A stretch of 64,000 nt of DNA from an uncultured Solirubrobacterales bacterium (GCA_963756655.1 CAVWOQ010000038.1:7178-71177), one strand, 5' to 3'. Shown: positions 10,152 to 54,499, counted from the stretch's first letter. The notes: a model not told the origin generated them from the letters alone. A program made the numbers and translations.

Positions 10152-10195
10152 CGCCTCGGTCCGCCCCTAGCTCCTAGGCGGCAACCACCACCCGG

Positions 10196-10219
10196 GTGAG
10201 AACACGGGTCTGCGGGTAG
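10196..10219 (+). promoter_or_regulatory. Possible SigB/SigF-type promoter GTGA-N14-GGGTAG
   Basis: Lies upstream of the SDR-GH15 operon. Confidence 0.35.
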
Positions 10220-10288
10220 CACACCCCTGTCCGCCGACCCGGTTAGCTCGTCGCGCGGTCAGAACGCAAACGAGACAAGGAGCGAACG

Positions 10289-33773: not shown

Positions 33774-33779
33774 GGCAAG

Positions 33780-34516: not shown

Positions 34517-34524
34517 GCGAGTCG

Positions 34525-38388: not shown

Positions 38389-40611
38389 ATGTCAATCAAA
38401 GCTCCACACACCCCACCGTCCGGCCGGCACGCCGACGCCGGACTGCTCGCGCGAGTCGTGCGAGTCGCGGCCAGCGCTTCGGCGCGCCGCCCGAAGACGA
38501 CGGTCGCATTCTGGTTCGCGCTGATCACGGCGTGCGTCGCGCTCGGCACCCTGAGCGGGATGCGCACGCTGAGCAACTCGGGCTCCGGGACGGGCGAGTC
38601 GGCCCGTGCCGACGCCAGGCTGGCGGCCTCGGGCCTCACGGGGCCGACGACCGAAGACGTGCTGGTCCGCTCGCCGAGCGCGGCGCGGACGGCGGCCGCC
38701 GTCGCGACCTTGGAGGCCGGAGCGCGGCGACTGCCCGACACGCTCAGGGTTCAGGGACCTCAGAGCTCGCCCGAGCTGTCACGCGACGGTGGCCGCACGG
38801 CGCTGGTGGTCGCCTCGTTGCGTGGCGACACCTCGCAATCGGACGCCGGCGCGGCACGGCTCGAGCGATTGGTTTCATCGCTGTCGAGCCGCGACCGCGG
38901 CGTCAGCATGGTCGAGGCGGGGGCCGGCTCGGGCGACAACGCGATCAACCAGCTGGTCTCGAGCAGCCTGCACCGCGCGGAGCTGATCTCGATCCCGATC
39001 ACGCTGCTGATCCTCGTGCTCGCGTTCGGTGCGTTGGTCGCCGCGTCGGTGCCGCTGCTGCTGGGCCTGACTTCGGTCGGTGCGGCGCTGGGCGCGCTCG
39101 GGCTGGTGTCCCAGATCGCACCCGACGGCTCCTCGACGGCGCCGGTCGTCGTCCTGATCGGCCTCGCGGTCGGGGTTGACTACTCGCTGTTCTACATCCG
39201 GCGTGAGCGCGCCGAGCGCCGCGCAGGCGCGAGCGTCGAGGCGGCGCTGGCGGCCACGTCGGCGACCGTCGGGCGCGCGATCCTGGTCGCCGGTGCGACC
39301 GTCGTGATCGGGCTCGCCGGGCTCCTGTTCACCGGCGTCGGCGTGTTCACGTCGATGGCGTTGGGGGCGATCCTGGTGGTCGCGATCGCGGTCGTAGGCT
39401 CGCTGACGGTGCTGCCGGCGATGCTGACGCTGCTGGGCGACCGGGTCGACCGAGGCCGGCTCTGGGCCCGCCGCCCGCGCCGCCGTCGCACGGTCTGGCA
39501 GCTCCTGGCGACGGCTGTGACCGGACGACCCCGGGTCGCGCTGGTCGGCTCGCTGCTGCTGCTCGCGGTGCTCGCCATCCCGGTGCTCTCGATCCAGACC
39601 GCCGAGCCGGGCGAGAACGACGTCCCGGCCAACACGCCGATCCGCGTCGCCGAGCGCGCGATCAATCACGCCTTCCCGGGCTCTGGGGACACAGCCGATC
39701 TGGTCGTCAGCGGCCGGCGGCTCGGACGGCCACGGGCGCTCGCGCAGTTGCGGGCGATCGGCGAGCGAGGGCTCGCGATCACCGGCGGCCGCGGGACCGT
39801 GGCGCTCGAGGTCTCACGCGACGGCGGGACCGCGCAGCTCCAGATCCCGATCCCCGACAGCAGCCTCAGCGTCGCCAACGATCGAGTGCTGGCGTTGCGC
39901 CGGCAGCTCGAGCCGGCCGTCGCGAGCGCGATCCCGGGGGCTCGGGCAGCGCTGACCGGTGACTACGCCGGCAACCTCGACTTCTCGAGCCGTCTGTCGA
40001 GCGTCACGCCGATCGTGATCGCGTTCGTCCTTGGCCTGGCGTTCATCCTGCTGGTGGCGACCTTCGGCTCGCCGCTGCTGGCGCTGTCGGTGATCGGCCT
40101 GAACCTGATGTCGGTCGGAGCCGCGTTCGGCGTGCTGGTCGCGGTCTTCCAATACGGCTGGGGCCAGTCGCTGCTCGGTTTCCAGTCAGACGGCGCGGTC
40201 GTCGAGTGGCTCCCACTGTTCGCGTTCGTCGTGCTGTTCGGCCTCTCGATGGACTACACGGTGCTGGTGCTGGAGCGGGCTCGCGAGGCGCGACGCGCGG
40301 GCGCCGGCGCCAGGCAGGCGGCGGCCGAGGCGCTGAGCTCGACGGGTGGCACGGTGACGAGCGCCGCGGTCGTGATGATCGCCGTGTTCTCCGTGTTCGC
40401 GACGCTACCGCTGCTCGAGTTCAAGCAGCTCGGCGTCGGTCTGGCCGCGGCGATCGCGCTTGACGCGACGCTCGTGCGGGGTGTCGCGCTGCCGGCCGTG
40501 GTCACGTTGCTCGGCGATCGCGGCCTGGCGCCGAGCCGGGCGCGCGGTGCGCGCGTGCCGGACTGGGATCATGGTGTCCATGTCGCAGCGCTCGGGTCGA
40601 GCCATGACTAA
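38389..40611 (+). CDS. MMPL/RND family transporter
   Basis: LAFGALVAA, AVGVDYSLFY, FGLSMDY, LDATLVRGVALPA. Confidence 0.92.
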   Translation: MSIKAPHTPPSGRHADAGLLARVVRVAASASARRPKTTVAFWFALITACVALGTLSGMRTLSNSGSGTGESARADARLAASGLTGPTTEDVLVRSPSAARTAAAVATLEAGARRLPDTLRVQGPQSSPELSRDGGRTALVVASLRGDTSQSDAGAARLERLVSSLSSRDRGVSMVEAGAGSGDNAINQLVSSSLHRAELISIPITLLILVLAFGALVAASVPLLLGLTSVGAALGALGLVSQIAPDGSSTAPVVVLIGLAVGVDYSLFYIRRERAERRAGASVEAALAATSATVGRAILVAGATVVIGLAGLLFTGVGVFTSMALGAILVVAIAVVGSLTVLPAMLTLLGDRVDRGRLWARRPRRRRTVWQLLATAVTGRPRVALVGSLLLLAVLAIPVLSIQTAEPGENDVPANTPIRVAERAINHAFPGSGDTADLVVSGRRLGRPRALAQLRAIGERGLAITGGRGTVALEVSRDGGTAQLQIPIPDSSLSVANDRVLALRRQLEPAVASAIPGARAALTGDYAGNLDFSSRLSSVTPIVIAFVLGLAFILLVATFGSPLLALSVIGLNLMSVGAAFGVLVAVFQYGWGQSLLGFQSDGAVVEWLPLFAFVVLFGLSMDYTVLVLERAREARRAGAGARQAAAEALSSTGGTVTSAAVVMIAVFSVFATLPLLEFKQLGVGLAAAIALDATLVRGVALPAVVTLLGDRGLAPSRARGARVPDWDHGVHVAALGSSHD

Positions 40612-41602
40612 CAGCTCCGAGCAGCGGTCGGCGCTGCAGCGGGCGGTGGTGACGCCGCCCGCTGTCCTGTGCGTGTCGCTCGTGATCATCTGGCTGTTCA
40701 CCGGCGCGGGTTACTTCTGGCCGATGTGGGCCGTGCTGGGGATCGCGATCCCGACCGGGCTGTGGGTGGCTTGGCGGTGGGCGAAGACGCAGCCGGGTGG
40801 CACGAGCCGCCGCTACGCGATCCACGCGGGCGTCTCCTGCGTCCTCGCCGCGACGGTGATCGCGGTCTGGGCGATGGCGGGTGCCGGCAACTTCTGGCCG
40901 ATCTACCCGCTCGTCGGGTTAGGCGCCCTGCTCGCGCTGCACCGCGCGTTCCTGGGTCCTGGCCAGCGCTCGCTGCAGATCCGGGTTGACGAACTGACCC
41001 GGACCCGCAGCGGGGCGCTCGACGTGCAGGCATCGGAGCTGCGGCGGATCGAGCGCGACCTGCACGACGGGGCGCAGGCACGGCTGGTGGCGCTCAGCAT
41101 GCAGCTCGGTCGCGCCGAAGAGCGGCTCGCCGACCACCCGGAGAGCGCCGCGCTGGTCCGCAGCGCTCGGGAGGAGGCGACTGCCGCGATCGCCGAACTG
41201 CGCGATCTGGCGCGCGGGATCGCCCCGCCGGTCCTGGCCGACCGCGGGCTCGTCGCCGCCGTGCAGTCGCTCGCCAACCGCTCGAGCGCGGTCGTCGAGG
41301 TCAAGGGCGAGCTCGCACGCCGGCCGCCGCCGGTGGTCGAGGCGGCCGCCTACTTCGTGGTCGCCGAGTCGCTCACCAACGTCGTCAAGCACGCCCCGGG
41401 AGCGGCCGCCCGGGTGACCGTCAGCCAGGACGGCGCGATGCTCGTCGTCGAGGTCGCCGACAACGGCCCCGGGGGCGCCGTTCCGTCCGGCGGCGGACTG
41501 ACCGGGCTGCGCCAGCGTGTCGAGGCGCTCGACGGCCGGCTCGACGTCCACAGCGTCAAGGGCGAAGGGACCGTCGTCTGGGCCGTGCTGCCGTGCGAGT
41601 AG
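40604..41602 (+). CDS. Sensor histidine kinase (HisKA_3 type)
   Basis: RIERDLHDGAQARL, ESLTNVVKHA, VADNGPGG, GLTGLRQRV. Confidence 0.93.
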   Translation: MTNSSEQRSALQRAVVTPPAVLCVSLVIIWLFTGAGYFWPMWAVLGIAIPTGLWVAWRWAKTQPGGTSRRYAIHAGVSCVLAATVIAVWAMAGAGNFWPIYPLVGLGALLALHRAFLGPGQRSLQIRVDELTRTRSGALDVQASELRRIERDLHDGAQARLVALSMQLGRAEERLADHPESAALVRSAREEATAAIAELRDLARGIAPPVLADRGLVAAVQSLANRSSAVVEVKGELARRPPPVVEAAAYFVVAESLTNVVKHAPGAAARVTVSQDGAMLVVEVADNGPGGAVPSGGGLTGLRQRVEALDGRLDVHSVKGEGTVVWAVLPCE

Positions 41603-42252
41603 TCATCGTCGAGGATCAGGCGCTGCTGCGTGAAGGGATCGTGGCGCTGCTCGCCGAGAACGGGATCGAGGTCGTCGCGCAGGCAGACGACGGCCCCGGA
41701 CTGCTGCGGATCGTCGACGGCCACAAGCCGGACCTGGCGATCTGCGACGTGCGGCTGCCGCCGACCTTCACCGACGAGGGGATCCGCGCGGCGCTCGAAG
41801 CCCGCCGGCGCCACCCAGAGCTCGCCGTGCTCGTGCTCTCGCAGTACGTCGAGCCGGTCTACACCGGCGAGCTGCTGGCGGCCGGCGAGAGCGGCGTCGG
41901 CTACCTGCTCAAGGAGCGGGTGGCCGAGGTGAGGACGTTCATCGAATCGGTCAAGCGGGTCGCGGCCGGCGGCACCGCGCTCGATCGCGAGGTCGTCAGC
42001 GCGCTGATCGCCGACCGCGACCGGTCCGGCGGCGGCGAGCTCGACGCGCTGACGCCGCGCGAGCGCGAGACGCTCGAGCTGATCGCCCAAGGGCGGACCA
42101 ACGCGGCGATCGCGCGCGAGATGGTGGTCACGCTCGGCGCGGTCGAAAAACACGTGTCAAACATCTTCGCCAAGCTCGACCTGCCGGCCGGCGACGATGA
42201 CCACCGGCGGGTGCTGGCGGTGCTCGCCTACCTGCGCGCGACCGGGGGCTGA
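41593..42252 (+). CDS. NarL/LuxR-family response regulator
   Basis: VIVED, CDVRLPP, GYLLKERV, LTPRERETLELIAQGRTN. Confidence 0.95.
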   Translation: MRVVIVEDQALLREGIVALLAENGIEVVAQADDGPGLLRIVDGHKPDLAICDVRLPPTFTDEGIRAALEARRRHPELAVLVLSQYVEPVYTGELLAAGESGVGYLLKERVAEVRTFIESVKRVAAGGTALDREVVSALIADRDRSGGGELDALTPRERETLELIAQGRTNAAIAREMVVTLGAVEKHVSNIFAKLDLPAGDDDHRRVLAVLAYLRATGG

Positions 42253-42397
42253 GCTTTGCCGCGCCGGGGTGGACTTGCCGTCAGATGCGCGGACTGAATT
42301 CGACCCGAGTTCGATCCCTCGCCATATACGTCAGAGATCGAACGCGGCTCATCCGGCGCCGGCGAGCTCGTGCGCCCGGGGGCCGTACCCGTGGCGC

Positions 42398-42421
42398 GTG
42401 AACCACCTCGCGAGCGGGTAG
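42398..42421 (+). promoter_or_regulatory. Putative SigB/SigF-type promoter GTGA-N14-GGGTAG
   Basis: 10 nt upstream of ATG 42432. Confidence 0.45.
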
Positions 42422-42431
42422 AGCGACACAT

Positions 42432-42659
42432 ATGACCGTAGTCGACCTGTTCACGCGGCTCGAAGTTCCGCAGCCGACCGAGCCACCGACGCCGGTGGTC
42501 CCCGACGCCCCGGTGACCCCGATCGATCCCGACCCTGGCACCCCGGCCGACCCCGCGGAGCCGCTGATCGTGCCGGTGCCGCAGGAGGAGCCGACGCCGG
42601 TCGATCCGGAGACGAACCCGCAGCCCGAGCCTGAACCCGAGCCGGACGCCGCAGCCTAG
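42432..42659 (+). CDS. Small Pro/Glu/Asp-rich, probably disordered protein
   Basis: MTVVDLFTRLEVPQPTEPPTPVVPDAP...PEPEPEPDAAA; promoter match upstream. Confidence 0.55.
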   Translation: MTVVDLFTRLEVPQPTEPPTPVVPDAPVTPIDPDPGTPADPAEPLIVPVPQEEPTPVDPETNPQPEPEPEPDAAA

Positions 42660-44299
42660 TAGCGCGTGAGCATCGAGCGTCCTCGGCCAAGGCGGAGCGA
42701 GGCGAGCGGAGGGCGCTCTGAAACCGGGATCGAGGCTATCGCGCCGTCCGCCCACGGCCGTCGATAGGTGCCGCCGATCACAGCGTGGTGGTCGCGTCGG
42801 CACTCGACGGCCGCCAGCACCGCGTAGGCCATCTCACCCAGCGCGCGCAGTGGCTGGTGGCGATTCTGGCGGCTGCCGAGGTCGCACTCCGCGAGCGCAT
42901 CGAGGCCGTCGCGACGCAGTGCGTCGATCAGGACCGCGATCTCGACCCCGTACCCGCTCGGGAACGGGATCGCCTCCAGCAGCGATCGGCGGGCGGACAG
43001 CTCGCCGGCCAGCGGCTGCGCAAACCCGGCCAGCCGCGGCTGATGCATGTTGAGCAGCGGGCGCGCCATCAGCTCGGTGACGCGGCCGCCCTCGTTGGGG
43101 AGGCTGGCGCCGCCTGCCTGCCGTGGCCGCTCAAACGCCCCCTTGACGAGTTGCACGCCGTCGTCGCTGAGGATTGGCCCGAGCAACCCCTGCAGGTGAA
43201 GCGGGTCCGGATCCTGCGTGTCGCCGTCGAGAAAGCAGACGACATCGCCAGCGGTGATGCTCAGCGCGCGCCACATAGCGTCGCCCTTGCCGAGTGCCGG
43301 ACCCCAATCGTCCATGATCTCGTCCTGATCAACCGTCGTCGCGCCCGCCGCGGCGGCGACGGCGGCGGTCCCATCGACCGAGCCGGCGTCGACGACGATC
43401 AGCTCGTCGACGAGCCCATGCTCCGACAGCGGGCCGACCGTATGGCGCAAGATCGCCTCGATCGTGTCGGCGCACTCCTTGGTCGGGATCACGACGCTGA
43501 CCGATGTCGCCCCCTTGTGGGCAGCGAGCGATGAGAGGCTGAACTCGGCGGCGCGATAACGCCGGTGCTCGGCCCATAGCGAGACCTCGAGATCGACGGA
43601 CAGGCCGTGGGCGACCCGGCCCTGCGACCGTGCCGAAGTACGGACCCTGACGTCGCGCACGCGCCGGATCCGCACCCGGTGCTCTCCGAGGCGCCTGGCG
43701 AATGCAGCGTCCTCGAGCGCCGCCAGCGGCTCGAGGCCGCCGACTGCACGGTAGGTGGCGGCGGTGACCGCGAGCGAGGCGCCGGCGAAATGGTGATGCT
43801 CGGCTGCTGGGTCCAGACGCCGCACGCGCGCGAGCCGCTGTGCGGCGTCGCGTTCGCGGCGGGCGAGGACCGCGGCCGGCAGGTCCGCTTGCTGCGCCGG
43901 TTCGAGCTCGATCAAGCCGGCGATCGCGGTCGCGCCATCGCGGGCGTGGGCCAGCTGGCGCTCGAGCCAGTCGGGCGCCGGCCGCGAGTCGGCGTCGGTG
44001 CAGGCGATCAGCCCGTCGTTCGCGCCGAGCGCGAGCAGGCGCGCTGCGGCGGCGTCCATTCCCAGGCGCCGCGCGGCGCCCGAGCCCCCGCCCGGGCCAT
44101 CGAGCATCGTGATCGGCAGCTCGTTGCGCGTCGCGAAGCCGGCGACGACCTCGCGGGTGGCGTCCCGGCAGGCATCGATCACGACGATTGTCTCAAAGCT
44201 CTGGCGGCCGATCGTCTGGGAGGCCAGTGCCTGCAAACAGCTCGCGATCGTGTGTTCCTCGTCGCGCGCCGGGATCACGACGATGCATTTCAGCTCCAT
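42656..44299 (-). CDS. gpgS: Fusion: N-terminal GT2 glycosyltransferase + glucosyl-3-phosphoglycerate synthase domain
   Basis: N: VIPARDEE, CTDADS, HHHFAGAS; C: GKGDAMW, FLDGD, GGRVTELMARP, QPLAGE, YGVEIAVLID. Confidence 0.85.
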   Translation of the reverse strand: MELKCIVVIPARDEEHTIASCLQALASQTIGRQSFETIVVIDACRDATREVVAGFATRNELPITMLDGPGGGSGAARRLGMDAAAARLLALGANDGLIACTDADSRPAPDWLERQLAHARDGATAIAGLIELEPAQQADLPAAVLARRERDAAQRLARVRRLDPAAEHHHFAGASLAVTAATYRAVGGLEPLAALEDAAFARRLGEHRVRIRRVRDVRVRTSARSQGRVAHGLSVDLEVSLWAEHRRYRAAEFSLSSLAAHKGATSVSVVIPTKECADTIEAILRHTVGPLSEHGLVDELIVVDAGSVDGTAAVAAAAGATTVDQDEIMDDWGPALGKGDAMWRALSITAGDVVCFLDGDTQDPDPLHLQGLLGPILSDDGVQLVKGAFERPRQAGGASLPNEGGRVTELMARPLLNMHQPRLAGFAQPLAGELSARRSLLEAIPFPSGYGVEIAVLIDALRRDGLDALAECDLGSRQNRHQPLRALGEMAYAVLAAVECRRDHHAVIGGTYRRPWADGAIASIPVSERPPLASLRLGRGRSMLTRY

Positions 44300-45459
44300 G
44301 ATGCCCCGCCTGCGATCAGCTTCTGGCCGCGCTCGTATGCGTCGTCGAGTTCGTGGCTGAGGACCCCGACGAGCCGGGATTCGCGTCCATACCAGGCGCT
44401 GAATGACCCGTCTGACCCGCGCTCGAACCGGACCTCGTCATAGCCGTCGCCCCACGCGGCGTACTTGAGCGTCCGGCGCCCGATCGTCGACCAGAAGCCG
44501 GGCACGTCGTCCCAGCTGGCGTCAACCCCGGCAGCCGTCCGCCCAGCCACGCGGCCCTGCCCCAGGGCGTCGCCCCAGTGCTCGACGCGAAGCCTCCTTC
44601 CGGCCGCGACGTTCTCCGCCAGCGCGACGTCGCCAGCCGCCAGCACCCCGGCGGCCGACGTGCGCATGCCGGCGTCAGTGGGCACGGCACCGTCTTCGAT
44701 GTCCAAGCCCGCCGCGATCGCGAGATCGGATCGAGGCGAGACACCGGTCGCCATCACGACCAGATCACCGCCCGCCTGGCCGTCGCCGGTGTAGACCTCG
44801 AGCCGGCCGCCGGCTTGGGCGATCTTCGTGACCTCGGCCCCGAGCGCGAGCTCGACACCCAGGTCGTCGAGCCAGCCGGTGATCTCCGCCGCAGCCTGCG
44901 CGCCGAGGCGGCGCTCGTTGGGCGCTGGTTCGTCGGATACGAGCACCACCGGGTGACCGAGCAGGCGCAGCGAGGCCGCGATCTCGCAGCCGATGAATCC
45001 AGAGCCGACGACCACGACCGCGAGCCCCTTCTCGAGCTCGCTTCGCAGGTCGCGCAGATCGTCGAGCGAGCGCAGCACGCGAACGCGCGGGTCGTCGTTG
45101 CCCGGCACCGGGAGTCGCTTCGGCTCGGCGCCCGGTGCGAGTAGGCAGCTGGTGTAGCTCAGCGGCCGGCCTCCGGACAGCGTGACTTCGCGCTTGGTCG
45201 GGTCAAGCGCCACCGCACGGGCGCCGACGAGCCCGATCCTCTGCTCTACGAACCACCGTTCCTCCTCGAGCGCGAGCTCGCTCTCGCTGATCTCACCGCG
45301 GAGCAGGTCCTTGCTCAGCGGCGGCCGGTTGTACGGGATCCGTCGCTCCTCGCTGACCAGGGCGACCGGCCCCTTCCCGCCCGCCTGGCGGTAGGCGCGC
45401 GCGGCCGCCAGCCCGGCCGGGCCGCCGCCGATGACCAGCAGCTCGTAGTCGCTGCTCAC
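44290..45459 (-). CDS. FAD/NAD(P)-dependent ferredoxin-reductase-type oxidoreductase
   Basis: IGGGPAG, YNRPPLSK, VVGSGFIGCEIAASL, VLAAGDVA, RVEHW. Confidence 0.9.
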   Translation of the reverse strand: MSSDYELLVIGGGPAGLAAARAYRQAGGKGPVALVSEERRIPYNRPPLSKDLLRGEISESELALEEERWFVEQRIGLVGARAVALDPTKREVTLSGGRPLSYTSCLLAPGAEPKRLPVPGNDDPRVRVLRSLDDLRDLRSELEKGLAVVVVGSGFIGCEIAASLRLLGHPVVLVSDEPAPNERRLGAQAAAEITGWLDDLGVELALGAEVTKIAQAGGRLEVYTGDGQAGGDLVVMATGVSPRSDLAIAAGLDIEDGAVPTDAGMRTSAAGVLAAGDVALAENVAAGRRLRVEHWGDALGQGRVAGRTAAGVDASWDDVPGFWSTIGRRTLKYAAWGDGYDEVRFERGSDGSFSAWYGRESRLVGVLSHELDDAYERGQKLIAGGASWS

Positions 45460-46025
45460 GTCCGCTCCAATGCGTCGAGCAGGTAGTCGTCGGTCGTCGT
45501 GGAGGCGCGCGGCGCGAGCCATGGCTGGGCTCTGAGCGCCGAGTGGACCTGCGCGGCGGTGAACGGACGGTCGCGACCCGCCGGGCGCCAGTGCACGGCG
45601 ACGAGCCGGCCGCCCGGCCCCAGCACCCGCGCCAGCAGCGCGAGCGTCGCTTCAAGACTCTCGGGGCCGAGGTAATAAAGGATCTCCGAGGCAACGACGA
45701 GGTCGTAGCGCCGGCGCGGAACATCGTCGGGGATCGTGCCCACGATCACGTTGACCAGATCGGAGCCGCCGAGCCGCGATCGTGCCGCCGCCACCGCCGT
45801 CGGAGCGCCGTCGATCGTCGTCAAGCGCCGGCAGCGCGGTGCGAGCTGCTGACTGAACACGCCAATCGAGCCGCCCAGCTCGAGCGCACTCGAAAACGGC
45901 CCCGGTCCGCACGCCGCGAGCGTCGCCGTGTATTTGTCGCGCTCGTACGAGGAGCTCTGATAGCCCCACGGATCGGGGTCGGCGCGGTAGCGCGCCTCGA
46001 ATTCTGCCGGCGTCATCGCAGTCAT
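45456..46025 (-). CDS. NodS-like SAM-dependent methyltransferase
   Basis: FEARYRADPDPW..SSYERDKY, ALELGGSIG, VASEILYY, LVAVHW. Confidence 0.88.
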   Translation of the reverse strand: MTAMTPAEFEARYRADPDPWGYQSSSYERDKYTATLAACGPGPFSSALELGGSIGVFSQQLAPRCRRLTTIDGAPTAVAAARSRLGGSDLVNVIVGTIPDDVPRRRYDLVVASEILYYLGPESLEATLALLARVLGPGGRLVAVHWRPAGRDRPFTAAQVHSALRAQPWLAPRASTTTDDYLLDALERT

Positions 46026-47143
46026 CGCGCCGGCGGCTCGGTTCGACCTGCTGCCTGCTCGAGGGCGGCGGCGCCGGCCTGGGCCAGCAGCGGATCGAGC
46101 CGGTGCTGGAGCAGGAAGACCTCGAGGTCGCGCCGCGCGCGGTCCAAGCTGCCGCCGCGCGCAAATGGCCGCGAGCCGCATGCGCGCGCGGCTTCGTCGA
46201 GCAGCGCCCGGCAGGCGTCCGAAATGCAAGCGCGTGCGTGCAGGGCGACCGCCGCGAGATCCGGGCCCGACTCGTCCATCTTCCGGGCGGCCACATCGAG
46301 CCACGCGGAGATCGTCTGCTGTGCGGTCAGCATCCGCCCGGCAGCCAGTTCTTCCAGCGCTCCGCGGCTCGGCCGCGCGGCGAGCTCGTCGATCGCCGCA
46401 CCGACGGCGGTATCCGCCATCCCGGCCCATGAGGCAGCCGTTCGCAGCGCGTCGCGGCCGAACCACGGTTGCGCTGAGATGCCGCCGGGTGGGCCGAGGC
46501 GGGCGAGCACCGGCGCGTCCTCGAACACGACCCGGTGCGAGACTGACGCCCGCAAGCCATGGGACTGATACCAGCTCGGGTCGATCCCGACCCGGCGCGA
46601 GTCGCTGACGTCGACCCAGGCCGAGACCGGCGGGCCGCCGTCCTCGGGTCGCCCGAGAACCAGCGCGCGGTGAATGCCGCCGGCGCCCGAGCAGAAGGTC
46701 TTGACGCCCCGCAGGAACTGCTTGCCGCCACGTGCGATGACGGTTGCCGGCGGACCCTCGCCCGCGACCGGGTCACCGCCCCAGACGCCGGCGCGCAACT
46801 CGCAGCGACTGATCGCTGCGAGCTCACGCTCGGCGAGCTCCGGCGGGCCCTGGACGATCAGTCGTTCGATCGCGTTAAGGTGGCCGTCGAAGATCCTGCC
46901 GACCGCCCCATCGGCACGAGCGACCTCGCGGACCAGGCGCAGTTCGTCGGCGGCGGGCGGGCGTCCCCGCCCGGGTACGGCGTTGAAGGTGGTCGCCCCG
47001 GCGCGCTCGAGCTCGATGAAAGCGGCCTCGGGAAACGCCGGGCTGGGCTCGGCGTCACGCTCATGCGCTGTCTTGCGGATCCGGTGCAGCGCCGCCTCCA
47101 GGGTCATCTCCGAAGGCGCTTTGGCATGCGCGAGCCGGGTCAC
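46022..47143 (-). CDS. Acyl-CoA dehydrogenase-like protein
   Basis: GRIFDGHLNA, GVKTFCSGAG, GLRASVS, ACGSR, RDLEVFLLQ. Confidence 0.82.
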   Translation of the reverse strand: MTRLAHAKAPSEMTLEAALHRIRKTAHERDAEPSPAFPEAAFIELERAGATTFNAVPGRGRPPAADELRLVREVARADGAVGRIFDGHLNAIERLIVQGPPELAERELAAISRCELRAGVWGGDPVAGEGPPATVIARGGKQFLRGVKTFCSGAGGIHRALVLGRPEDGGPPVSAWVDVSDSRRVGIDPSWYQSHGLRASVSHRVVFEDAPVLARLGPPGGISAQPWFGRDALRTAASWAGMADTAVGAAIDELAARPSRGALEELAAGRMLTAQQTISAWLDVAARKMDESGPDLAAVALHARACISDACRALLDEAARACGSRPFARGGSLDRARRDLEVFLLQHRLDPLLAQAGAAALEQAAGRTEPPAR

Positions 47144-47712
47144 GCCAATGCCTTCAGCGAGATCCCCGACCGCTGCGCGTGGTCGATGACCAGCTTCGCG
47201 TACGCGACCGTCTCCTCGGCGCCCCTGCGGAGCGCGCCCGGACCGATGCCGTCGTGCGCGAGCACGACCGCGCCGGGCTCGAGCGACTGCCGTGTCGAGG
47301 CGAACATGTCGTCGGCGCGATCGCCGCGCCAATCGTTGGTGTCGACACTCCAGCCGACCAGCCGGAGCCTGCGCTCGTGCGCGATCTGGCACGTCCATGG
47401 AGCTATGTCGCCCCAGGGCGTTCGCCACAGAACCGGGTCGACGCCGAGGTCCGCGAGACGCTGCAAGGCTCGATCAGCGTCGCGTGCGCACCACGCCTTG
47501 TCGCGGCTGCTGTGTCGCACATGCTGGTCGCAATGCAAGCCGACGGCGTGCCCTTCGCGAACCATCCGCTCGATCAGTGCCGGGTGCGCTGGGGCGCGCG
47601 GAGCGATCACGAAGAACGTCGCCGTGGCCGCGGCCTCACCCAGGAGGTCGAGCAGCATCGGCGTATAGCGGCAATCGGGGCCGTCGTCGAAGGTCAGCGC
47701 AAGCGCCCGCAC
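47140..47712 (-). CDS. Polysaccharide deacetylase (NodB/CE4 family)
   Basis: LTFDDGP, ATFFV, LHCDQH, WRTPWG, WSVDTNDW, VLAHD; start at GTG 47712 (TTG 47721 is an alternative). Confidence 0.88.
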   Translation of the reverse strand: MRALALTFDDGPDCRYTPMLLDLLGEAAATATFFVIAPRAPAHPALIERMVREGHAVGLHCDQHVRHSSRDKAWCARDADRALQRLADLGVDPVLWRTPWGDIAPWTCQIAHERRLRLVGWSVDTNDWRGDRADDMFASTRQSLEPGAVVLAHDGIGPGALRRGAEETVAYAKLVIDHAQRSGISLKALA

Positions 47713-47721
47713 CCGGAACAA

Positions 47722-47747
47722 ATACCCGCTCGACGCCGCTTCATCAC
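47722..47747 (-). promoter_or_regulatory. Putative SigB/SigF-type promoter GTGA-N16-GGGTAT
   Basis: 9 nt upstream of GTG 47712. Confidence 0.5.
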
Positions 47748-47772
47748 GCGCGCAGCTCTAGGATCGTGATGG

Positions 47773-48426
47773 ATGCCGACCGCCGTCCTCGACATCGACG
47801 GGACGCTCGTCGACACCAACTACCACCATGCGCTGGCCTGGTTCAGGGCCCTTTGCGAGTTCGAGCTCGTGCTCCCGATCTGGCGCATCCACCGCCATCT
47901 CGGGATGGGCGGCGACCAGATGGTCGTCGCCCTGTGCGGCGATCGGGTCGAACGTGACAACGGGGATGCGATCCGCGAGGCCGAGGGAAGCCGCTACGGG
48001 GAGCTGATCGGAGAGGTGCGGACGATGGTTGGGTCGCGAGAGCTGATCCTTGCGCTCAAGGAGCGTGGACACACGGTCGTGCTCGCCAGCTCGGCCAAGG
48101 CCGACGAGGTTGAGCACTACGTCGAGCTGCTCGACGCCCGCGATCTGGTCGATGGGTGGACCACGTCGGCCGACGTCGAGTCGACCAAGCCCGCGCCTGA
48201 TCTCGTCCACGCCGCGCTCGAGCGAGTAGGCGGCGGCGCCGATCAAGCGGTGATGGTCGGCGACACCCCGTGGGATGTGAAAGCCGCCGCCGCGGCGGGG
48301 GTGCAGACGCTCACGGTGGTGACCGGTGGCTTCAGCGAGCAGGAGCTGCGCGATGCGGGCGCGGCGGCGGTGTTCGAGTCGGTCGCCGAACTCTGCGACC
48401 GACTCGACGAGACGCCGTTGCACTGA
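47773..48426 (+). CDS. HAD family hydrolase
   Basis: LDIDGTLVD, KPAPD, VGDTPWD. Confidence 0.92.
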   Translation: MPTAVLDIDGTLVDTNYHHALAWFRALCEFELVLPIWRIHRHLGMGGDQMVVALCGDRVERDNGDAIREAEGSRYGELIGEVRTMVGSRELILALKERGHTVVLASSAKADEVEHYVELLDARDLVDGWTTSADVESTKPAPDLVHAALERVGGGADQAVMVGDTPWDVKAAAAAGVQTLTVVTGGFSEQELRDAGAAAVFESVAELCDRLDETPLH

Positions 48427-48434
48427 GTGTTCTG

Positions 48435-49967
48435 CTAGGCGGGCCTTGGGCTCCGTTTGGTGGTCACCGTCGCTGCGTGCTGCACGCCGCTGCGCGCCGC
48501 GCTCGTTACTGCGGTGAGCGGTGCGGCGATGCTCTCGAGCCCTCGGCGCTCTGCCTTGACCCCGTAGACGATCTCGACCAGGCCGCCGACGATCATCAGG
48601 ATCGCACCGATGGAGAGGGCAAAGAACACGTCAGAGGTGTTGCCCGTCGGCACCAGCCGACCGAACAGCTGCGGCCCGATGATGCCGCCGATCCCCGTGC
48701 CGACCGCGTAGAACAGGGCGATCGCCAACGCGCGGGTCTCCAGCGGGAAGATCTCACTGACGGTCAGGTACGCGGCGCTCACACCTGCGGAGGCGAAGAA
48801 GAACACCACGCTCCAAGCGATCGTGAGCGTCGTCGCGTTCAGCTGATGCTGATCGAACATGTAGCCGGTGATCAGCAACAGCACGCCCGAGAGAATGTAG
48901 GTTCCCGCGATCATCGGCTTGCGGCCGACACTGTCGAACAGGGGACCGAGGATGATCGGCCCGAGCAGGTTGCCGACCGCGAACGCGACCAGGTAGTACG
49001 GCGCATCGGCGGTGGCGACGCCGAAGAAAGTGCTGAGCAGGGTCGCGTAGCCGAACAGAATCGCGTTGTAGAGGAACGCCTGGCCGATGAACAGGGCAAG
49101 GCCAAGCACGGTCCGCTTCGGGTAGGTCTTCACGATCGCGCGCGAGATCTCCCACAGGCCGATCGACTTTCGCTGCTTGATGGTGATCGTCTCGTCGGGG
49201 TCGTCGAGCTGCGCGCCGGTGCTCTCCGCCACCTGGTGTTCGATGTCCTGCGTCACCTCCTCAGCCTCGTCTTCGCGGCCGTGGATGAACAGCCAGCGAG
49301 GGCTCTCAGGGACGCTCCGGCGGACGATCAGGATCGCGGTTCCGAGGATCGCGCCGAGCCCGAAGCAGACCCTCCAGCTGAGCAACGGAGAGAAGATGTG
49401 CAGCGCCGCCACCGACAGCAGCGCGCCCGCTGCCGCCCCGAGCCAATAGGTCCCGTTGATCAGAATGTCGATCCGGCCGCGGTGTTGGGCCGGGATCAGC
49501 TCGTCGATCGCGGAGTTGATCGCCGAGTACTCGCCGCCGATACCCATTCCGGTCACGAACCGGCAGGCAAAGAAGAACAGCGGCGTCCATGCGAAGGCGG
49601 TCGCGATGGTCGCTGCCAGATAGACGCCGAGCGTGACCATGAACAGGCGCTTTCGTCCGAACATGTCGGTCAGGCGGCCGAATAACAGCGCTCCCACGCA
49701 CGCGCCCGCCACGTACATCGATGCCGCCCAGCCAGCGATGTCGGCGGCAGAGATGTTGATGCCACTGCCCTTGGCGGAGATTGCCCCCGCGATCGAGCCG
49801 ACGACCGTCACCTCAAGACCATCGAGAATCCAGACCGTTCCCAGCCCGATGAGGATCTTCCAATGCCAGCTCGACCACGGCAACCTGTCCAGCCGTGCCG
49901 GGATATTGGTCTCAATGGTCCCTAGTTCGTGGCCCGTGCCCGTGCGTGTGGCTGTAGCTGTCGCCAT
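48435..49967 (-). CDS. MFS transporter (sugar/organic-ion type)
   Basis: ARLDRLPWS, DMFGRKRLF, GIGGEYSAINSAIDE, VPESPRWL, SEIFPLETRA. Confidence 0.92.
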   Translation of the reverse strand: MATATATRTGTGHELGTIETNIPARLDRLPWSSWHWKILIGLGTVWILDGLEVTVVGSIAGAISAKGSGINISAADIAGWAASMYVAGACVGALLFGRLTDMFGRKRLFMVTLGVYLAATIATAFAWTPLFFFACRFVTGMGIGGEYSAINSAIDELIPAQHRGRIDILINGTYWLGAAAGALLSVAALHIFSPLLSWRVCFGLGAILGTAILIVRRSVPESPRWLFIHGREDEAEEVTQDIEHQVAESTGAQLDDPDETITIKQRKSIGLWEISRAIVKTYPKRTVLGLALFIGQAFLYNAILFGYATLLSTFFGVATADAPYYLVAFAVGNLLGPIILGPLFDSVGRKPMIAGTYILSGVLLLITGYMFDQHQLNATTLTIAWSVVFFFASAGVSAAYLTVSEIFPLETRALAIALFYAVGTGIGGIIGPQLFGRLVPTGNTSDVFFALSIGAILMIVGGLVEIVYGVKAERRGLESIAAPLTAVTSAARSGVQHAATVTTKRSPRPA

Positions 49968-50182: not shown

Positions 50183-50768
50183 ATGGCCGACTCACTGACG
50201 GACAAGAAGATCGCGATCATCGCGACCGACGGCGTCGAGCAGGTCGATCTCGTCAAGCCGCGCGAGGCGGTCGAGCAGGCCGGGGCCGACACCGAGCTGC
50301 TGTCGCTCAACAAGGGCGAGATCCAGGCGATGAACCACGACCTCGAGCCGGCCGACAAGCTTCCCGTCGACAAGCGGGTCGCCGATGCCTCGGCGGCCGA
50401 CTACGACGGCCTGATCCTCCCGGGCGGCAGCCGTCAACGCCGACAAGCTGCGGCTCGACGGCGACGTGATCTCGTTCGTGACCGACTACTTCAAGTCCGG
50501 CAAGCCCGTCGGGGTGATCTGTCACGGACCGTGGACGCTCGTCGAGGCCGACCTCATACGCGGACGGATGCTGACCTCGTATGCGAGCCTTCGCACCGAC
50601 ATCCGCAACGCCGGTGGCGAGCCGGTCGACGAGGAGGTCGTCGTCGATCAGGGACTCGTGTCATCGCGCGACCCGGAGGACCTGCCGGCGTTCTGCGCGA
50701 GGATCGTCGACGAGTTCGCCGCGGGCACGCACGACGTCGCGAGCGCCGGGGCGACGGCCAGCTCGTGA
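50183..50768 (+). CDS. PfpI/DJ-1 family protein (type 1 glutamine amidotransferase domain), frameshift at about 50430
   Basis: IATDGVEQV, YDGLILPGG, then NADKLR, GVICHGPW, SSRDPEDLPAF. Confidence 0.88.
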
Positions 50769-50769
50769 C

Positions 50770-51270
50770 TCAACCGCGCTCGCGGAGGCGCCGCTGTGAC
50801 GCGTCGATCTCCGCCAGCGCCTCCTCCCGCGAGTGCCAGCCGCCGACCTCGACGAACTTGCGCGGCTCGAGCTCCTTGTAGATCGAGAAGAACTGCTCGA
50901 TCTCGGCGCGCAGCAGAGCGGGCAGGTCCTCGATGCGGTCGTAGCCGTTCCAGTACGGGTCGTGGTACGGCACGCACAGGATCTTGTCGTCGGGGCCCTT
51001 CTCGTCGGCCATCGCGAACATGCCGATCGCCTTGACCGGGATCAGGCAGCCCGGAAAAGTCGGCTCGGTCAGGCACACGAGGGCGTCGAGCGGATCGCCG
51101 TCCTCGGCGAGCGTGCCGCGCAGGTAGCCGTAGTCGGTCGGATAGGTGGCGGCGCTCATCAGGAGGCGATCGAACTTGATCCCACCGAGCTCAGGGTCGA
51201 ACTCGTACTTGTTGCGGCTCCCCTTCGGGATCTCGACGACACACACGAGCTGGGAATGAGCGGCGTCCAC
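50770..51270 (-). CDS. ppa: Inorganic pyrophosphatase (family I)
   Basis: EIPKGSRNKYE, YPTDYG, DGDPLD, DEKGPDDK, IEQFFSIYKELE. Confidence 0.95.
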   Translation of the reverse strand: MDAAHSQLVCVVEIPKGSRNKYEFDPELGGIKFDRLLMSAATYPTDYGYLRGTLAEDGDPLDALVCLTEPTFPGCLIPVKAIGMFAMADEKGPDDKILCVPYHDPYWNGYDRIEDLPALLRAEIEQFFSIYKELEPRKFVEVGGWHSREEALAEIDASQRRLRERG

Positions 51271-51366
51271 CGGCTCGTGATCCTACGGCTTAGCTGCGCG
51301 CGGAGCGGGTAGAGCTGATCGCCTGGGCCGAACGGGAGTTGCTGCCCGCGCTCCGCTCGCTCTGAT

Positions 51367-51790
51367 TCAAGCGGGGACGCCCTCGTCGTAGCGAGGCACC
51401 CCGTCGTCGGGGAGCGTGTCCCACGGCGGCATCGAACTGACCCAGATGTGCCAGCGCGGCTCGATCTGAGGCATCGGGTCGAGCGTCCCGGGACGGATGC
51501 CGATCGGGCCGTCGCCGTCGAGCTCGCCCGCGAACAAATGCGTCCCACACAGGCCGCAGAACCACTTCGGGTTGCCGGTCTCAGGGCGCCACACCCGCAG
51601 TTCGTCGGCGCCGCCGGAGATCGTCACCGCCGCGCGCGGCACGCGACCCAGAAGGCTCGACGTCTGGCCGGTTCTGGTCTGACAGCGCTCTGCAGTGGCA
51701 GCGGCCGGCGTCCATGAACGGGGGCTGGACCGTGAATTGGATCGCGCCGCAGAGGCAGCGCCCGCTGTACGCATCTTGCGACGCGGCCAT
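51367..51790 (-). CDS. GFA (glutathione-dependent formaldehyde-activating/CENP-V) family protein, frameshift at about 51690
   Basis: GRCLCGAIQF, CHC..CQ, FCGLCGT, WHIWVSS. Confidence 0.85.
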
Positions 51791-52827
51791 CATCCCAGCG
51801 GCTTCTCGGCGTGTCCGCCGAAGCCCTTGCGCATCGCCGACAGCAGCTTGTCGGCGAACTCCTCGAGCCCGCGCGACGCAAAGCGCGAATAGAGCGCGGT
51901 CGTCAGCACCGGGGCGGGCACGCCGACATCGATCGCCGCGATCGACGTCCAGCGGCCCTCGCCGGAGTCCGACACGCGGCCCGTGAACTCATCGAGCGTC
52001 GGCGACGCGTACAGCGCCTCGGCGGTCAGATCCAAAAGCCACGACGAGATGACGCTGCCGCGACGCCAGAGCTCGGCGACCTCGGTCGTATCGATCGTGT
52101 ACTGGTAGTACTCGGGCGACTCCATCGGCGTGGTCTCGGCGTCCATCTCCTGCTGGCGCTTGCCGGCGTCGGCGTTCTTGATGATGTTCATGCCTTCGGC
52201 GTAGGCGGCCATCAGGCCGTACTCGATGCCGTTGTGGACCATCTTCACGAAGTGGCCCGCGCCGTTAGGCCCGCAGTGGTAGTACCCGTGCTCGGCGGGC
52301 GTCGGATCTCCCTCGCGGCCGGGCGTCCGGGGAGCAGCGTCGACGCCGGGAGCGATCGACGCGAAGATCGGGTCGAGGCGCTCGACCGGCTCGTCCTCGC
52401 CACCGATCATCAGGCAGAAGCCGCGCTCGAAGCCCCAGATGCCGCCGCTCGTGCCGACGTCGATGTGATGGATGCCCTTCTCCCTCAACGCCGCCGCGTG
52501 ACGCATGTCGTCGTGGTAGTAGGTGTTGCCGCCGTCGATGATCGTGTCGCCCGGCTCGAGCACTTCGGCCAGCTCGGCGATCGTCTCGTCGGTGATCTCG
52601 CCTGCGGGGACCATCACCCACGCCGCGCGCGGCTTCTCGAGCTTGGCGGCGAAGTCCTTCAGCGACCCGGCGCCGACGGCGCCGTTTGCCTCGACCGCCT
52701 TGACGGCGTCGGGAGAGACGTCGTAGGCGACACAGCGGTGTCCATCGGCCATCAGGCGCCGGACGAGGCCGGCTCCCATCCGGCCGAGGCCCACCATTCC
52801 GAGTTGCATCGGTGTCTCCGTGGCCAC
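51790..52827 (-). CDS. gnd: 6-phosphogluconate dehydrogenase (decarboxylating, short NAD-type)
   Basis: GLGRMG, DGGN, GTSGGIWG, GHFVKMVHNGIEY, DSGEGRW, GFGGH. Confidence 0.95.
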   Translation of the reverse strand: MATETPMQLGMVGLGRMGAGLVRRLMADGHRCVAYDVSPDAVKAVEANGAVGAGSLKDFAAKLEKPRAAWVMVPAGEITDETIAELAEVLEPGDTIIDGGNTYYHDDMRHAAALREKGIHHIDVGTSGGIWGFERGFCLMIGGEDEPVERLDPIFASIAPGVDAAPRTPGREGDPTPAEHGYYHCGPNGAGHFVKMVHNGIEYGLMAAYAEGMNIIKNADAGKRQQEMDAETTPMESPEYYQYTIDTTEVAELWRRGSVISSWLLDLTAEALYASPTLDEFTGRVSDSGEGRWTSIAAIDVGVPAPVLTTALYSRFASRGLEEFADKLLSAMRKGFGGHAEKPLG

Positions 52828-52852
52828 TGTCAGCTCCTTTGAGCGCGCTTTG

Positions 52853-54499
52853 TCATTGAGTTCGCAGCTTGCGGTAGCGCCGAATCAGCGCGTTAGTCGA
52901 ACTGTCGTGCTGCAGGTCCGGATCGTCGACGGATTCGAGCTCCGGGATGATCCGCTTCGCCAGCACCTTGCCCAGCTCGACGCCCCACTGGTCAAACGAG
53001 TTGATGTTCCAGATCGTGCCCTGGGTGAAGACGCTGTGCTCGTAGAGCGCCACCAGCGCCCCGAGCGTGCGCGGCGTCAACCGCTCGGCAAGGATCACGT
53101 TCGTCGGCCGGTTGCCCTCGAACACCCGGTGCGGAACGACCGCCTCGGGCGTGCCCTCCGCGCGGACCTCCTGGGCTGTCTTGCCGAACGCGAGCGCCTC
53201 GGCCTGCGCGAACACGTTTGACATCAGCAGGTCCTGATGGTCGCGGATCGGGTTGAGGTTCTTGCCGAACCCGATCAGGTCGACCGGGATCAGCTTCGTG
53301 CCCTGGTGGATCAGCTGGTAGAAGCTGTGCTGGCCGTTGGTGCCCGGCTCGCCCCAGTAGACGGCCCCGGTCTGGTAGTTGACCTCGGTCCCGTCGAGCC
53401 TCACGTACTTGCCGTTGGACTCCATCGTCAGCTGCTGCAGGTATGCGGGAAACCTCTTCAGATACTGGCTGTAGGGCATCACGCCGACCGTCTGGGCGAG
53501 GAAGAAGTCGCCGTACCAGACCGCCAGCAACCCCATCAGGACCGGGAGGTTGCGCTCGAACGGCGTCGTCCGGAAGTGGACGTCGATCTCGTGGAAGCCG
53601 GCCAGCAGCTCGCGGAAGCCGTCGGGCCCGACCGCCAGCATCGTCGACAGGCCGATCGCCGAGTCCATCGAGTAGCGGCCCCCGACCCAGTCCCAGAAAC
53701 CGAACATGTTCTGGGTATCGATCCCGAAGCTCGCCACCTCGCGCTCGTTGGTCGAGACCGCGACGAAGTGCCTGGCGACCGCCGACTCGTCGCCCAGCGC
53801 CGCCAGCGCCCAGTCGCGGGCCGTGTGCGCGTTGGTCATCGTCTCGAGCGTCGTGAACGTCTTCGAGGAGACGATGAACAGCGTCTCCTCGGCGTCGAGG
53901 TCGCGGGTCGCCTCGGCGAAGTCGGTCGAGTCGACGTTCGAGACGAAGCGGAAGGTCAGGTCGCGCCGCGTGTAGTGGCGCAGCGCCTCATAGGCCATCA
54001 CCGGTCCGAGGTCGGAGCCACCGATACCGATGTTGACGACGTTGCGGATCGGCTTGCCGGTGTGGCCCTTCCAGTCGCCCGACCGGACGCGGTCGGCGAA
54101 CGCGGACATCCGATCCAGAACCTCGTGCACCTCGGCGACCACGTCGACGCCGTCGACCACCAGCGACTCGCCCTTCGGCATCCGCAGCGCGACGTGCAGG
54201 ACGGAGCGGTTCTCGGTCGTGTTGATCCTGTCGCCGCGGAACATCGCGTCGATCCGCTCGCGCAGCGCCGACTCCTCGGCCAGCTTGAGCAGCAGCGCGA
54301 CCGTCTCGTCGGTGATCCGGTTCTTCGAATAATCGAGGTACAGCCCGGCCGCCTCCGCCGTCAGACGCTTGCCCCTGGCCGGGTCGTCGGCGAACAGTTC
54401 GCGCAGGTGAACGGGCTCGAGTTCGGCGTGGTGCTTCTTCAGCGCCTGCCAGGCCGCCCGATCGCGGAGGGGGGTCATGGTCGTTTCGCTCGTGCTCAT
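52853..54499 (-). CDS. pgi: Glucose-6-phosphate isomerase
   Basis: [55 protein letters not shown]. Confidence 0.97.

Follow-up and report, generated by a model that had tools for sequence, protein, structure and literature searches.

What is made by five overlapping genes, the last of which joins two glycosyltransferases in one protein? The question is raised by a stretch of DNA of 64,000 nucleotides, hereafter the window, from an uncultured Solirubrobacterales bacterium (GCA_963756655.1 CAVWOQ010000038.1:7178-71177), which has a G+C content of 72% and whose nearest relatives are Solirubrobacterales/Solirubrobacteraceae genomes. The genes encode, in this order, a NodB-type deacetylase, a protein resembling acyl-CoA dehydrogenases (ACAD), a NodS-like methyltransferase, a reductase, and a family 2 glycosyltransferase (GT2) fused to a GpgS domain (glucosyl-3-phosphoglycerate synthase) of family GT81. 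The GT2::GT81 fusion is genuine and recurrent, and the five genes are a single conserved, translationally coupled unit. As to the product, comparison of the sequences gives about an even chance, in our judgment, that the operon is a stress-induced cytoplasmic five-enzyme route to a decorated glycosyl-glycerate; the specific amino-sugar chemistry that we assign to this pathway is offered tentatively. The operon and its parts, in window coordinates, are as follows.

47721..42656, minus strand: five-gene operon, in the order NodB-type, ACAD-like, NodS-like, reductase, GT2::GpgS
47722..47747, minus strand: predicted SigB/SigF-type promoter, with a -35-like GTGATG at about 47747..47742 and a -10 GGGTAT at 47727..47722
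47140..47721, minus strand: NodB-type (CE4) deacetylase, 193 aa (profile matches and motifs)
46022..47143, minus strand: ACAD-fold flavoprotein, 373 aa (Pfam, PDB profile match, AlphaFold2 fold)
45456..46025, minus strand: NodS-like S-adenosylmethionine-dependent methyltransferase, 189 aa (PF05401, NCBIfam NodS, PDB 3ofj)
44290..45459, minus strand: ferredoxin/rubredoxin-reductase-type FAD/NAD(P)H flavoprotein, 389 aa (PF07992, PDB 3fg2)
42656..44299, minus strand: GT2::GpgS fusion, 547 aa (PF00535 and NF010496)
43625..44299, minus strand: GT2 domain at the N-terminus of the fusion (inverting GT-A), residues 1-225 (PF00535, PF13641)
42656..43585, minus strand: C-terminal GT81 domain of the fusion, GpgS or mannosyl-3-phosphoglycerate synthase (MpgS) type, residues 239-547 (NF010496, PDB 3f1y)

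All four junctions between the genes overlap (GTGA, ATGA, GTGA, and then 10 nt), on the minus strand, where the sequence-only reading of this DNA had placed five overlapping genes. The five reading frames are taken as coding because of their codon-position G+C, the third-position value being 0.84-0.88 across all of them. Neither transmembrane segments nor signal peptides were found in any of the five proteins, and no intrinsic terminator was found in a scan of 42300..48600. The window sequence is carried by soil DNA metagenomes only, and by no RNA runs.

A protein joined from two enzymes might be an assembly artefact or a curiosity of one genome, and both explanations can be ruled out here. 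One genome per GTDB species was scanned; at least 599 pattern matches were obtained, 579 of these were confirmed by tblastn, and the counts out of 80 given below refer to the best 80 of the at least 579 confirmed loci. The fusion is present in at least 579 species genomes, a number that excludes a one-off event, and the two domains are fused in all of the best 80. The full-length fused proteins form more than 120 clusters at 90% identity, and about twenty clusters are still fused when the clustering is made at 50%, with identities down to 39%. An artefact is excluded by the reading frame, which runs unbroken from GT2 to GpgS in 76 of the 80 loci, together with contigs from the soil runs X1, X2, and X5 (two studies), which span the fusion junction (43515-43700) without insertions or deletions.

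The gene order is conserved along with the fusion. Complete five-gene order is seen in 67 of the 80 loci, the reductase is absent from the operon in six (one of these six has a reductase nearby on the other strand), and contig ends cut five. Named carriers include Baekduia sp. Peel2402, Patulibacter minatonensis, a Conexibacter sp., and a metagenome-assembled genome (MAG) of the Miltoncostaeaceae, and the operon as such was found in Baekduia and Patulibacter. Rubrobacter aplysinae, which lies outside the class, has all five genes of the window operon in unchanged order. A survey for GpgS fused or adjacent to the cassette, which had been proposed as a check, thus returns at least 579 species genomes, R. 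aplysinae, and a MAG of the Acidimicrobiales described below. One rearranged variant (locus L046) has its ACAD-like gene on the opposite strand, at 5601-6704, and no NodB or NodS homologue 5' of its reductase and GT2::GpgS genes.

The GT81 domain gives the firmest indication of chemistry. Residues 239-535 of the fusion match the NCBIfam equivalog NF010496 over model positions 5-305 of 307, with 354.7 bits against a cut-off of 262, and the domain matches PDB 3f1y with an E-value of 2e-71 and mycobacterial GpgS with about 1e-60. In the Mycobacterium tuberculosis enzyme (MtGpgS), the DXD motif is accompanied by an Asp134-Lys114-Glu232 network and, at the metal site, by His258 in the beta8-alpha9 loop, whereas Val186 and Thr187 contact the carboxylate of 3-phosphoglycerate and Tyr229 and Met269 belong to the sugar pocket (PMC2581804). 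Window residues K338, D358/D360, G405-R-V-T408, Y450, E453, and M490 correspond to MtGpgS K114, D134/D136, G184-T187, Y229, E232, and M269, and all of these window residues are invariant among 16 aligned fusions (alignment A1). His258 aligns with window N479, and a histidine follows two residues on (RQNRHQ), as in 3f1y. Judged by these residues, the domain looks catalytically competent, with the GpgS/MpgS active site intact. Rubrobacter MpgS has dual specificity. Since the best solved match of the window domain was deposited as the mannosyl-3-phosphoglycerate synthase of Rubrobacter xylanophilus (3f1y), the domain could transfer mannosyl and not glucosyl groups.

The N-terminal domain matches PF00535 (107 bits, residues 5-225) and also PF13641; with NF010496 matching behind it, the last gene is what it had been claimed to be, a GT2 joined to a full GpgS domain. 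In alignment A1, its motifs are DAD, ED, and an invariant HHHFAGAS. Its AlphaFold2 model (pLDDT 83) has a generic soluble GT-A fold.

Is the operon expressed under stress? Among 73 related loci aligned on the NodB start, the pentamer GGGTA lies at -12..+3 of that start in 46, against 0.42 expected from its background frequency, a G-T-(T/G)-(T/A) element stands 14-15 nt 5' of it, and a start codon about 9 nt 3' of it, so that the motif overall reads GT(T/G)(T/A)-N14-GGGTA. No match to the sigma-70 promoter consensus was found in a scan of 42300..48600. The sequence GTTT-N(12-17)-GGGTA(T/C) is the signature of the SigB/SigF-type general-stress sigma factors of Gram-positive bacteria, and we take the window promoter to be of this class on the basis of published consensus sequences. 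Phylogenetic footprinting supports the stress-type promoter that the sequence-only reading had claimed, and the sigma factor itself is presumed from the motif. The start codon lies 0-9 nt 3' of the -10 element, and therefore the operon mRNA is likely leaderless or nearly so. GTG 47712, as a leaderless start, is a likelier start of the NodB-type gene than 47721.

The genes that precede the fusion belong to a wider family of operons. The sequence-only reading had pointed to a widespread cassette with no known product, composed of a GT2, an ACAD, a PIG-L deacetylase, and a NodS-like methyltransferase; this cassette exists, and plasmids that carry it come from Paracoccus, Streptomyces rimosus, Bradyrhizobium, and Deinococcus. 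A tblastn search of plasmids with the ACAD-like protein returned 67 records. In Paracoccus pantotrophus pPAN2, the order is GT2, ACAD-like, PIG-L deacetylase, NodS-like methyltransferase; the same set is present in S. rimosus (pSRIMHP) and Bradyrhizobium japonicum in an order differing from that of pPAN2. The GT2s of the cassettes are 31-33% identical to the N-terminal domain of the window fusion over the whole length, and their ACAD-like proteins are 26-32% identical to that of the window, with common invariant residues. The window operon is a member of this orphan cassette family: homologous GT2, ACAD-like, and NodS-like proteins and a sugar deacetylase are encoded in one operon, the deacetylase being of the CE4 rather than the PIG-L family. 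The Deinococcus cassette has a longer ACAD-like protein (787 aa); a GT2::ACAD fusion of the Rosetta-stone kind was considered for it and rejected, as its N-terminal 400 residues are not a GT2. A literature search returned no publication that deals with the cassette, with the fusion, or with a link between NodB/NodS and glucosylglycerate.

The tie between the cassette and GpgS is also seen outside the window type. In the Acidimicrobiales MAG (DASTHS010000037.1; locus L086, 9001-11265), a 754-aa protein (P0247) is a NodS::GT2::GpgS triple fusion, preceded by genes for an ACAD-like protein (32% identical to that of the window) and a PIG-L deacetylase. This triple fusion is a single record, for which a frame-fusion error is conceivable. 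As read from its genes, the locus carries the cassette in its canonical PIG-L form, joined to GpgS in a protein that has also taken up the methyltransferase. Other GpgS-type fusions (P0315, P0348, P0351, P0368, P0353, P0384) join the domain to GT4, universal stress protein, and pre-ATP-grasp domains. A plasmid tblastn search with the GpgS domain gave only ordinary actinomycete gpgS genes, none adjacent to a cassette. A stand-alone gpgS that is 63% identical to the C-terminal domain of the window is monocistronic with a convergent DJ-1/PfpI gene. Because the stand-alone gpgS and the fusion loci have this DJ-1/PfpI neighbour in common, we suggest that the cassette became linked to a gpgS that was already resident.

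A different arrangement occurs on the Rubrobacter indicoceani plasmid NZ_CP031116 (locus L081, 10788-13266), where the GT-A that accompanies the NodB, ACAD-like, NodS-like, and reductase genes is not fused; it shares 49% identity with the GT2 domain of the window. The next gene after this GT-A encodes a polytopic membrane protein of 546 aa, for which Pfam gives no match and whose N-terminus, EDSFISFRYARNL, has a GT-C-like loop motif; this protein hints at a membrane-linked version of the pathway.

Which tailoring reactions do the other proteins suggest? The deacetylase matches PF01522 with 78 bits (cut-off 23), and its best NCBIfam match is rhizobial NodB (TIGR04243), over the full length and with 122 bits, which is below the cut-off of 240. 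All five CE4 motifs (TFDDG, HxxxH, RxPW, DxxDW, and LxH) can be read from its sequence. By these scores, it belongs to the CE4 family in the wider sense and is no NodB equivalog, and the replacement of PIG-L by a NodB-type enzyme that had been noticed in the window agrees with both profiles. Two unrelated deacetylase families, PIG-L and NodB/CE4, thus fill one slot of the cassette, and for this reason their common job is, we infer, best explained as sugar de-N-acetylation. The methyltransferase matches PF05401 (NodS) with 62 bits against a cut-off of 24, NCBIfam NodS (NF041650) with 86.8 bits, below its cut-off of 300, and the solved NodS 3ofj with an E-value of 2e-18. Its best solved match is PDB 4isc (1e-19), a 164-residue chain named only "Methyltransferase", which may come from such a cassette in another organism. 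During the synthesis of Nod factors, NodS N-methylates only after NodB has deacetylated (PMC5080398).

The ACAD-like protein is probably an oxygenase rather than an acyl-CoA dehydrogenase, as indicated by both profiles and a structural model. Its Pfam match is borderline (C-terminal domain, 23.5 against a cut-off of 22.4), and among solved sequences its profile finds DszC best, with an E-value of 5e-8. The AlphaFold2 model (pLDDT 90) has the ACAD fold, and its Foldseek TM-scores are 0.77-0.81 to the ACAD-fold oxygenases DszC, TdsC, MsuC, KijD3, DnmZ, and ORF36, compared with 0.72-0.75 to true ACADs. The K-x-F-C-S-G-A motif around Ser163 of DszC is also present. The position of the catalytic Glu376 of medium-chain acyl-CoA dehydrogenase is H335, which is variable in the cassette family, and Q334 alone is invariant, in a register extended by hand from the 5lnx alignment. 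The adjacent reductase, of Pyr_redox_2 + Reductase_C architecture, matches PF07992 with 194 bits and PDB 3fg2 (rubredoxin reductase) with an E-value of 5e-52, followed by BphA4, TodA, and PdR, and has no CxxxxC redox disulfide in its sequence; the added gene is indeed the ferredoxin-reductase-type flavoprotein that had been suspected. An electron supply driven by NAD(P)H fits an oxygenase better than a dehydrogenase.

From these proteins, the following route can be proposed, in which the chemistry after the first step is what we infer. The GT81 domain would join nucleoside diphosphate (NDP)-glucose, or NDP-mannose, to 3-phosphoglycerate. The fused inverting GT2 would then place a beta-linked N-acetylhexosamine (HexNAc) on the glycosyl-3-phosphoglycerate, the NodB-type enzyme would take the acetyl group off the added HexNAc, and the NodS-like enzyme would N-methylate the freed amine, in the NodB-to-NodS order of Nod-factor synthesis. 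The ACAD-fold flavoprotein would oxygenate or oxidise the amino sugar with electrons of NAD(P)H delivered by its ferredoxin-reductase-like partner. Finally, the phosphate would be removed by a HAD hydrolase encoded next to the operon, where one is present, or by a phosphatase whose gene lies elsewhere. We would expect the product to be a small glycoside, charged or zwitterionic, serving as a stress solute or as the primer of a larger glycoconjugate.

Several observations lead to this route. The NodS::GT2::GpgS triple fusion beside PIG-L and ACAD-like genes is the reason for linking the methyltransferase, GT2, and GpgS functions. It is known that MggA accepts only glucosyl-3-phosphoglycerate (GPG) and that MggB then dephosphorylates its product (PMC3736172); because of this precedent and the GpgS::GT4 fusions, a second glycosyltransferase acting on GPG is plausible. 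The NodB-then-NodS logic comes from the best NCBIfam matches of the two proteins, which are NodB and NodS, and the cytoplasmic location from the lack of transmembrane segments. The link to stress rests on the GGGTA promoter, on the DJ-1/PfpI neighbour (in 30 of the 80 loci, directly 3' of the fusion in ten), and on the fusion of GpgS to a universal stress protein elsewhere. In its most specific form, our proposal is that an N-methyl-, possibly N-oxygenated, hexosaminyl-glucosyl/mannosyl-glycerate represents a new class of nitrogen-containing, probably zwitterionic glycosylglycerates with which Solirubrobacterales and Rubrobacter meet stress as a solute, and that the cassette is a portable amino-sugar capping or tailoring module used on different acceptors across phyla. 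We hold this form to be possible, but doubtful.

A number of findings weigh against the decorated glycosyl-glycerate route. The five-gene variant can apparently operate without GpgS, because the R. indicoceani plasmid form has an unfused GT-A, and the membrane protein that follows this GT-A favours an envelope route, considered below. The GT2 domain has only generic GT-A neighbours in Foldseek (WrtF, AvpGT, TarS, and K4CP), and its donor and acceptor therefore cannot be inferred from them. The NodS-like enzyme could be an O-methyltransferase instead. For the ACAD-fold protein, the margin of similarity between oxygenases and true ACADs is slight; a ferredoxin-reductase type is unusual as the flavin reductase in two-component oxygenase systems, six of the 80 operons are without the reductase, and across the 80 loci there is no recurring gene for a ferredoxin or rubredoxin. 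The sequence-only reading had suggested that the divergent HAD hydrolase could be the phosphatase, and the gene is indeed there, followed by a transporter gene:

47773..48426, plus strand: HAD-IA hydrolase, 217 aa, divergent from the operon and 51 nt from it (PF13419, PF00702)
after the HAD hydrolase gene: MFS transporter gene

However, a HAD at 50% identity or more is found in only 12 of the 80 loci, and the protein lies outside both known families of GPG phosphatase (GpgP), namely HAD-IIB MpgP/GpgP and the His_Phos_1 family of Rv2419c. It is of class IA; none of its best 25 NCBIfam matches is a GpgP/MpgP model, and the top ones are models of pyrophosphatase, phosphonatase-like, and PGP type. 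Four arrangements of the HAD occur (divergent, co-directional upstream, directly downstream, and 2-3 kb past the fusion, the last in L037 and L054), and it is 43% identical to a HAD three genes downstream in the R. indicoceani version; its association with the operon is weak but non-random. In Baekduia sp. Peel2402 (locus L087, 11593-12168), a gene of the His_Phos_1 family, to which mycobacterial GpgP belongs, overlaps the 3' end of the fusion; it was rejected as a general clue to a GpgP-type enzyme, since it is present in no locus other than that of Baekduia.

How else could the arrangement be explained? If the two halves of the operon were merely expressed together, the GT81 domain would make plain glucosyl- or mannosylglycerate, the cassette would make an unrelated product, and the fusion would ensure their joint expression under stress. 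Both halves do exist apart: the stand-alone gpgS (63% identical) has no cassette, yet it too has the DJ-1/PfpI neighbour, and cassettes without GpgS occur in Proteobacteria, Streptomyces, Deinococcus, and on the R. indicoceani plasmid. Nevertheless, fusions that are kept over two classes and down to 39% identity, along with a triple fusion in which the methyltransferase is included, are what one typically sees for steps that follow one another and not for simple co-expression, and the GpgS::GT4 fusions and the MggA precedent point to an extension of GPG, and co-regulation alone seems unlikely to us. The R. indicoceani plasmid also favours an envelope glycoconjugate, for which the Arn enzymes (ArnC, ArnD, and ArnT) provide the analogy. 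The GT2 would load HexNAc on a lipid or polymer carrier, the CE4 enzyme would de-acylate it as ArnD does, and the modified amino sugar would be moved to an envelope polymer, with the glycosyl-phosphoglycerate as a primer or anchor. An unfused GT-A beside a 546-aa polytopic membrane protein, and weak NCBIfam similarities to ArnC and PpgS, agree with such a route. Against it, the five proteins have no transmembrane segments or signal peptides, neither a GT-C nor a flippase turns up repeatedly among the 80 loci, GpgS chemistry is cytoplasmic and concerns small molecules, and the promoter and neighbours are of the general-stress type. We regard the envelope route as distinctly unlikely.

Two explanations remain. 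GpgS begins the synthesis of mycobacterial methylglucose lipopolysaccharide (MGLP), a pathway with methyl and acyl decorations (PMC3240985, PMC4555173), and the window operon might likewise extend glucosylglycerate to an oligosaccharide that is O-methylated or acylated, with the ACAD-like protein acting on the acyl substituent. There is, however, a single extra glycosyltransferase, with no GT4 alpha-1,4-glucosyltransferase, GH57, or acyltransferase in the operon or close to it; the catalytic Glu is missing from the ACAD-like protein, and the presence of a deacetylase would be left unexplained, all of which makes an MGLP-like primer highly unlikely. A glycosyltransferase together with a PIG-L deacetylase is also the hallmark of MshA/MshB and BshA/BshB, and a low-molecular-weight thiol or redox cofactor of the mycothiol/bacillithiol type would have a glucosamine-acid scaffold and the Pyr_redox_2 protein as its disulfide reductase. 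The best match of the PIG-L protein of the Acidimicrobiales locus is BshB1, with 46 bits, far under the cut-off. Because no cysteine ligase is present and the reductase, of the ferredoxin/rubredoxin type, has no redox disulfide of the CxxxxC kind, we rejected this explanation as hardly credible.

Other genes around the operon may be mentioned. The DJ-1/PfpI-family gene of the window (50183-50768, plus strand) is broken by a frameshift at 50433; the base is missing from contigs of three short-read soil runs, which most likely makes the frameshift an error of assembly in the window. The same family is also found beside the triple fusion of the Acidimicrobiales (L086) and the gpgS that stands alone (L090-L092). 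Genes for an Mrp-type cation/proton antiporter are located about 8 kb from the operon (31564-35139, plus strand) and, in eight loci (L006, L007, L020, L039, L043, L050, L051, and L056), directly 3' of the fusion gene (at about 9700-12100); the antiporter is a further salt- or alkali-stress function near the operon. In the locus of Baekduia sp. Peel2402 (L087), genes for a Mn-catalase, a ferritin-like protein, and Nramp are nearby. An open reading frame of 75 aa, rich in Pro and Glu (42432-42659, plus strand), ends 1 nt past the stop codon of the fusion on the opposite strand and is kept beside the operon in the closest relatives (L001-L003, L024, and L048). A sensor histidine kinase and a LuxR-type response regulator (40460-42252, plus strand) are convergent to the operon, and this pair is kept only in the nearest relatives (L001 and L003). 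Beyond the MFS gene is a cluster of inorganic pyrophosphatase, 6-phosphogluconate-dehydrogenase-like, and glucose-6-phosphate isomerase genes (50770-54499, minus strand).

Solirubrobacterales are among the most abundant and least studied actinobacteria of soil, and the operon, present in hundreds of their species, has so far been annotated only as "glucosyl-3-phosphoglycerate synthase" and hypothetical proteins. The fusion provides the first chemical handle on a four-gene cassette of Proteobacteria, Deinococcus, and Streptomyces. As far as sequences can show, they support the link between this orphan cassette and glucosylglycerate chemistry that the sequence-only reading had proposed. Because one substrate pair (3-phosphoglycerate and an NDP-hexose) can be guessed, a stepwise rebuilding of the pathway in vitro is possible, and the cultured carriers Baekduia sp. 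Peel2402, Patulibacter minatonensis, and Rubrobacter aplysinae are suited to a search for the metabolite. A new glycosylglycerate derivative, if our proposal is true, would extend the small set of compatible solutes, and it might bring to light a new role for ACAD-fold oxygenases, acting on amino sugars elsewhere than in the making of antibiotics.

With Nod-factor tailoring (NodC, NodB, and NodS), the operon has in common the logic of a GT2, a cytoplasmic CE4 deacetylase, and a NodS-family methyltransferase. However, its scores are far under the NodB and NodS equivalog cut-offs, its GT2 is small, soluble, and non-processive compared with NodC, and it has an ACAD-fold flavoprotein and no NodA acyltransferase. 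The ACAD-fold (group D) flavin monooxygenases (DszC/TdsC, and the amino-sugar N-oxygenases KijD3, DnmZ, and ORF36) are the best sequence-profile and structural matches of the second protein, which shares with DszC/KijD3-type enzymes the K-x-F-C-S-G-A motif and the absence of the catalytic Glu of ACADs. The identity to these monooxygenases is only 20-22%, and the positions of His92 and Tyr96 of DszC are unmatched. These oxygenases need a separate NAD(P)H-dependent reductase, and the window has an adjacent reductase gene, although of an atypical kind: the usual partner is a small flavin reductase, whereas here it is of the ferredoxin-reductase type. Like actinobacterial GpgS (Rv1208) and Rubrobacter MpgS (3f1y), the GT81 domain has a DXD motif, an Asp-Lys-Glu network, the acceptor loop GGRVTEL, and a Tyr and a Met in the sugar pocket. 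The mobile loop of the window (RQNRHQ) is that of Rubrobacter MpgS, whereas Rv1208 has RAHRNR; the window also differs from Rv1208 at the nucleotide-ribose Glu54 position, and from both enzymes in that its GT81 domain sits behind a fused GT2.

At the level of whole pathways, the orphan cassettes of pPAN2 and pSRIMHP resemble the operon in their homologous and tightly packed GT2, ACAD-like, and NodS-like genes, whereas the operon has CE4 in place of PIG-L, an added reductase gene, and a GT2 fused to GpgS. The mannosylglucosylglycerate route of Petrotoga mobilis and Rhodopirellula baltica is similar to the proposed pathway in its succession of GpgS, a second glycosyltransferase, and a phosphatase; its product is a stress solute, and its genes are sometimes consecutive (PMC3736172). 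MggA is a separate GT4, whereas in the window an inverting GT2, joined to GpgS in one protein, takes the place of the second transferase, and in contrast to the MggA/MggB route, the operon adds a deacetylase, a methyltransferase, a flavoprotein, and a reductase, while its phosphatase is not fixed. The operon is a variant of the glycosylglycerate-type pathways that carries an uncharacterised tailoring module.

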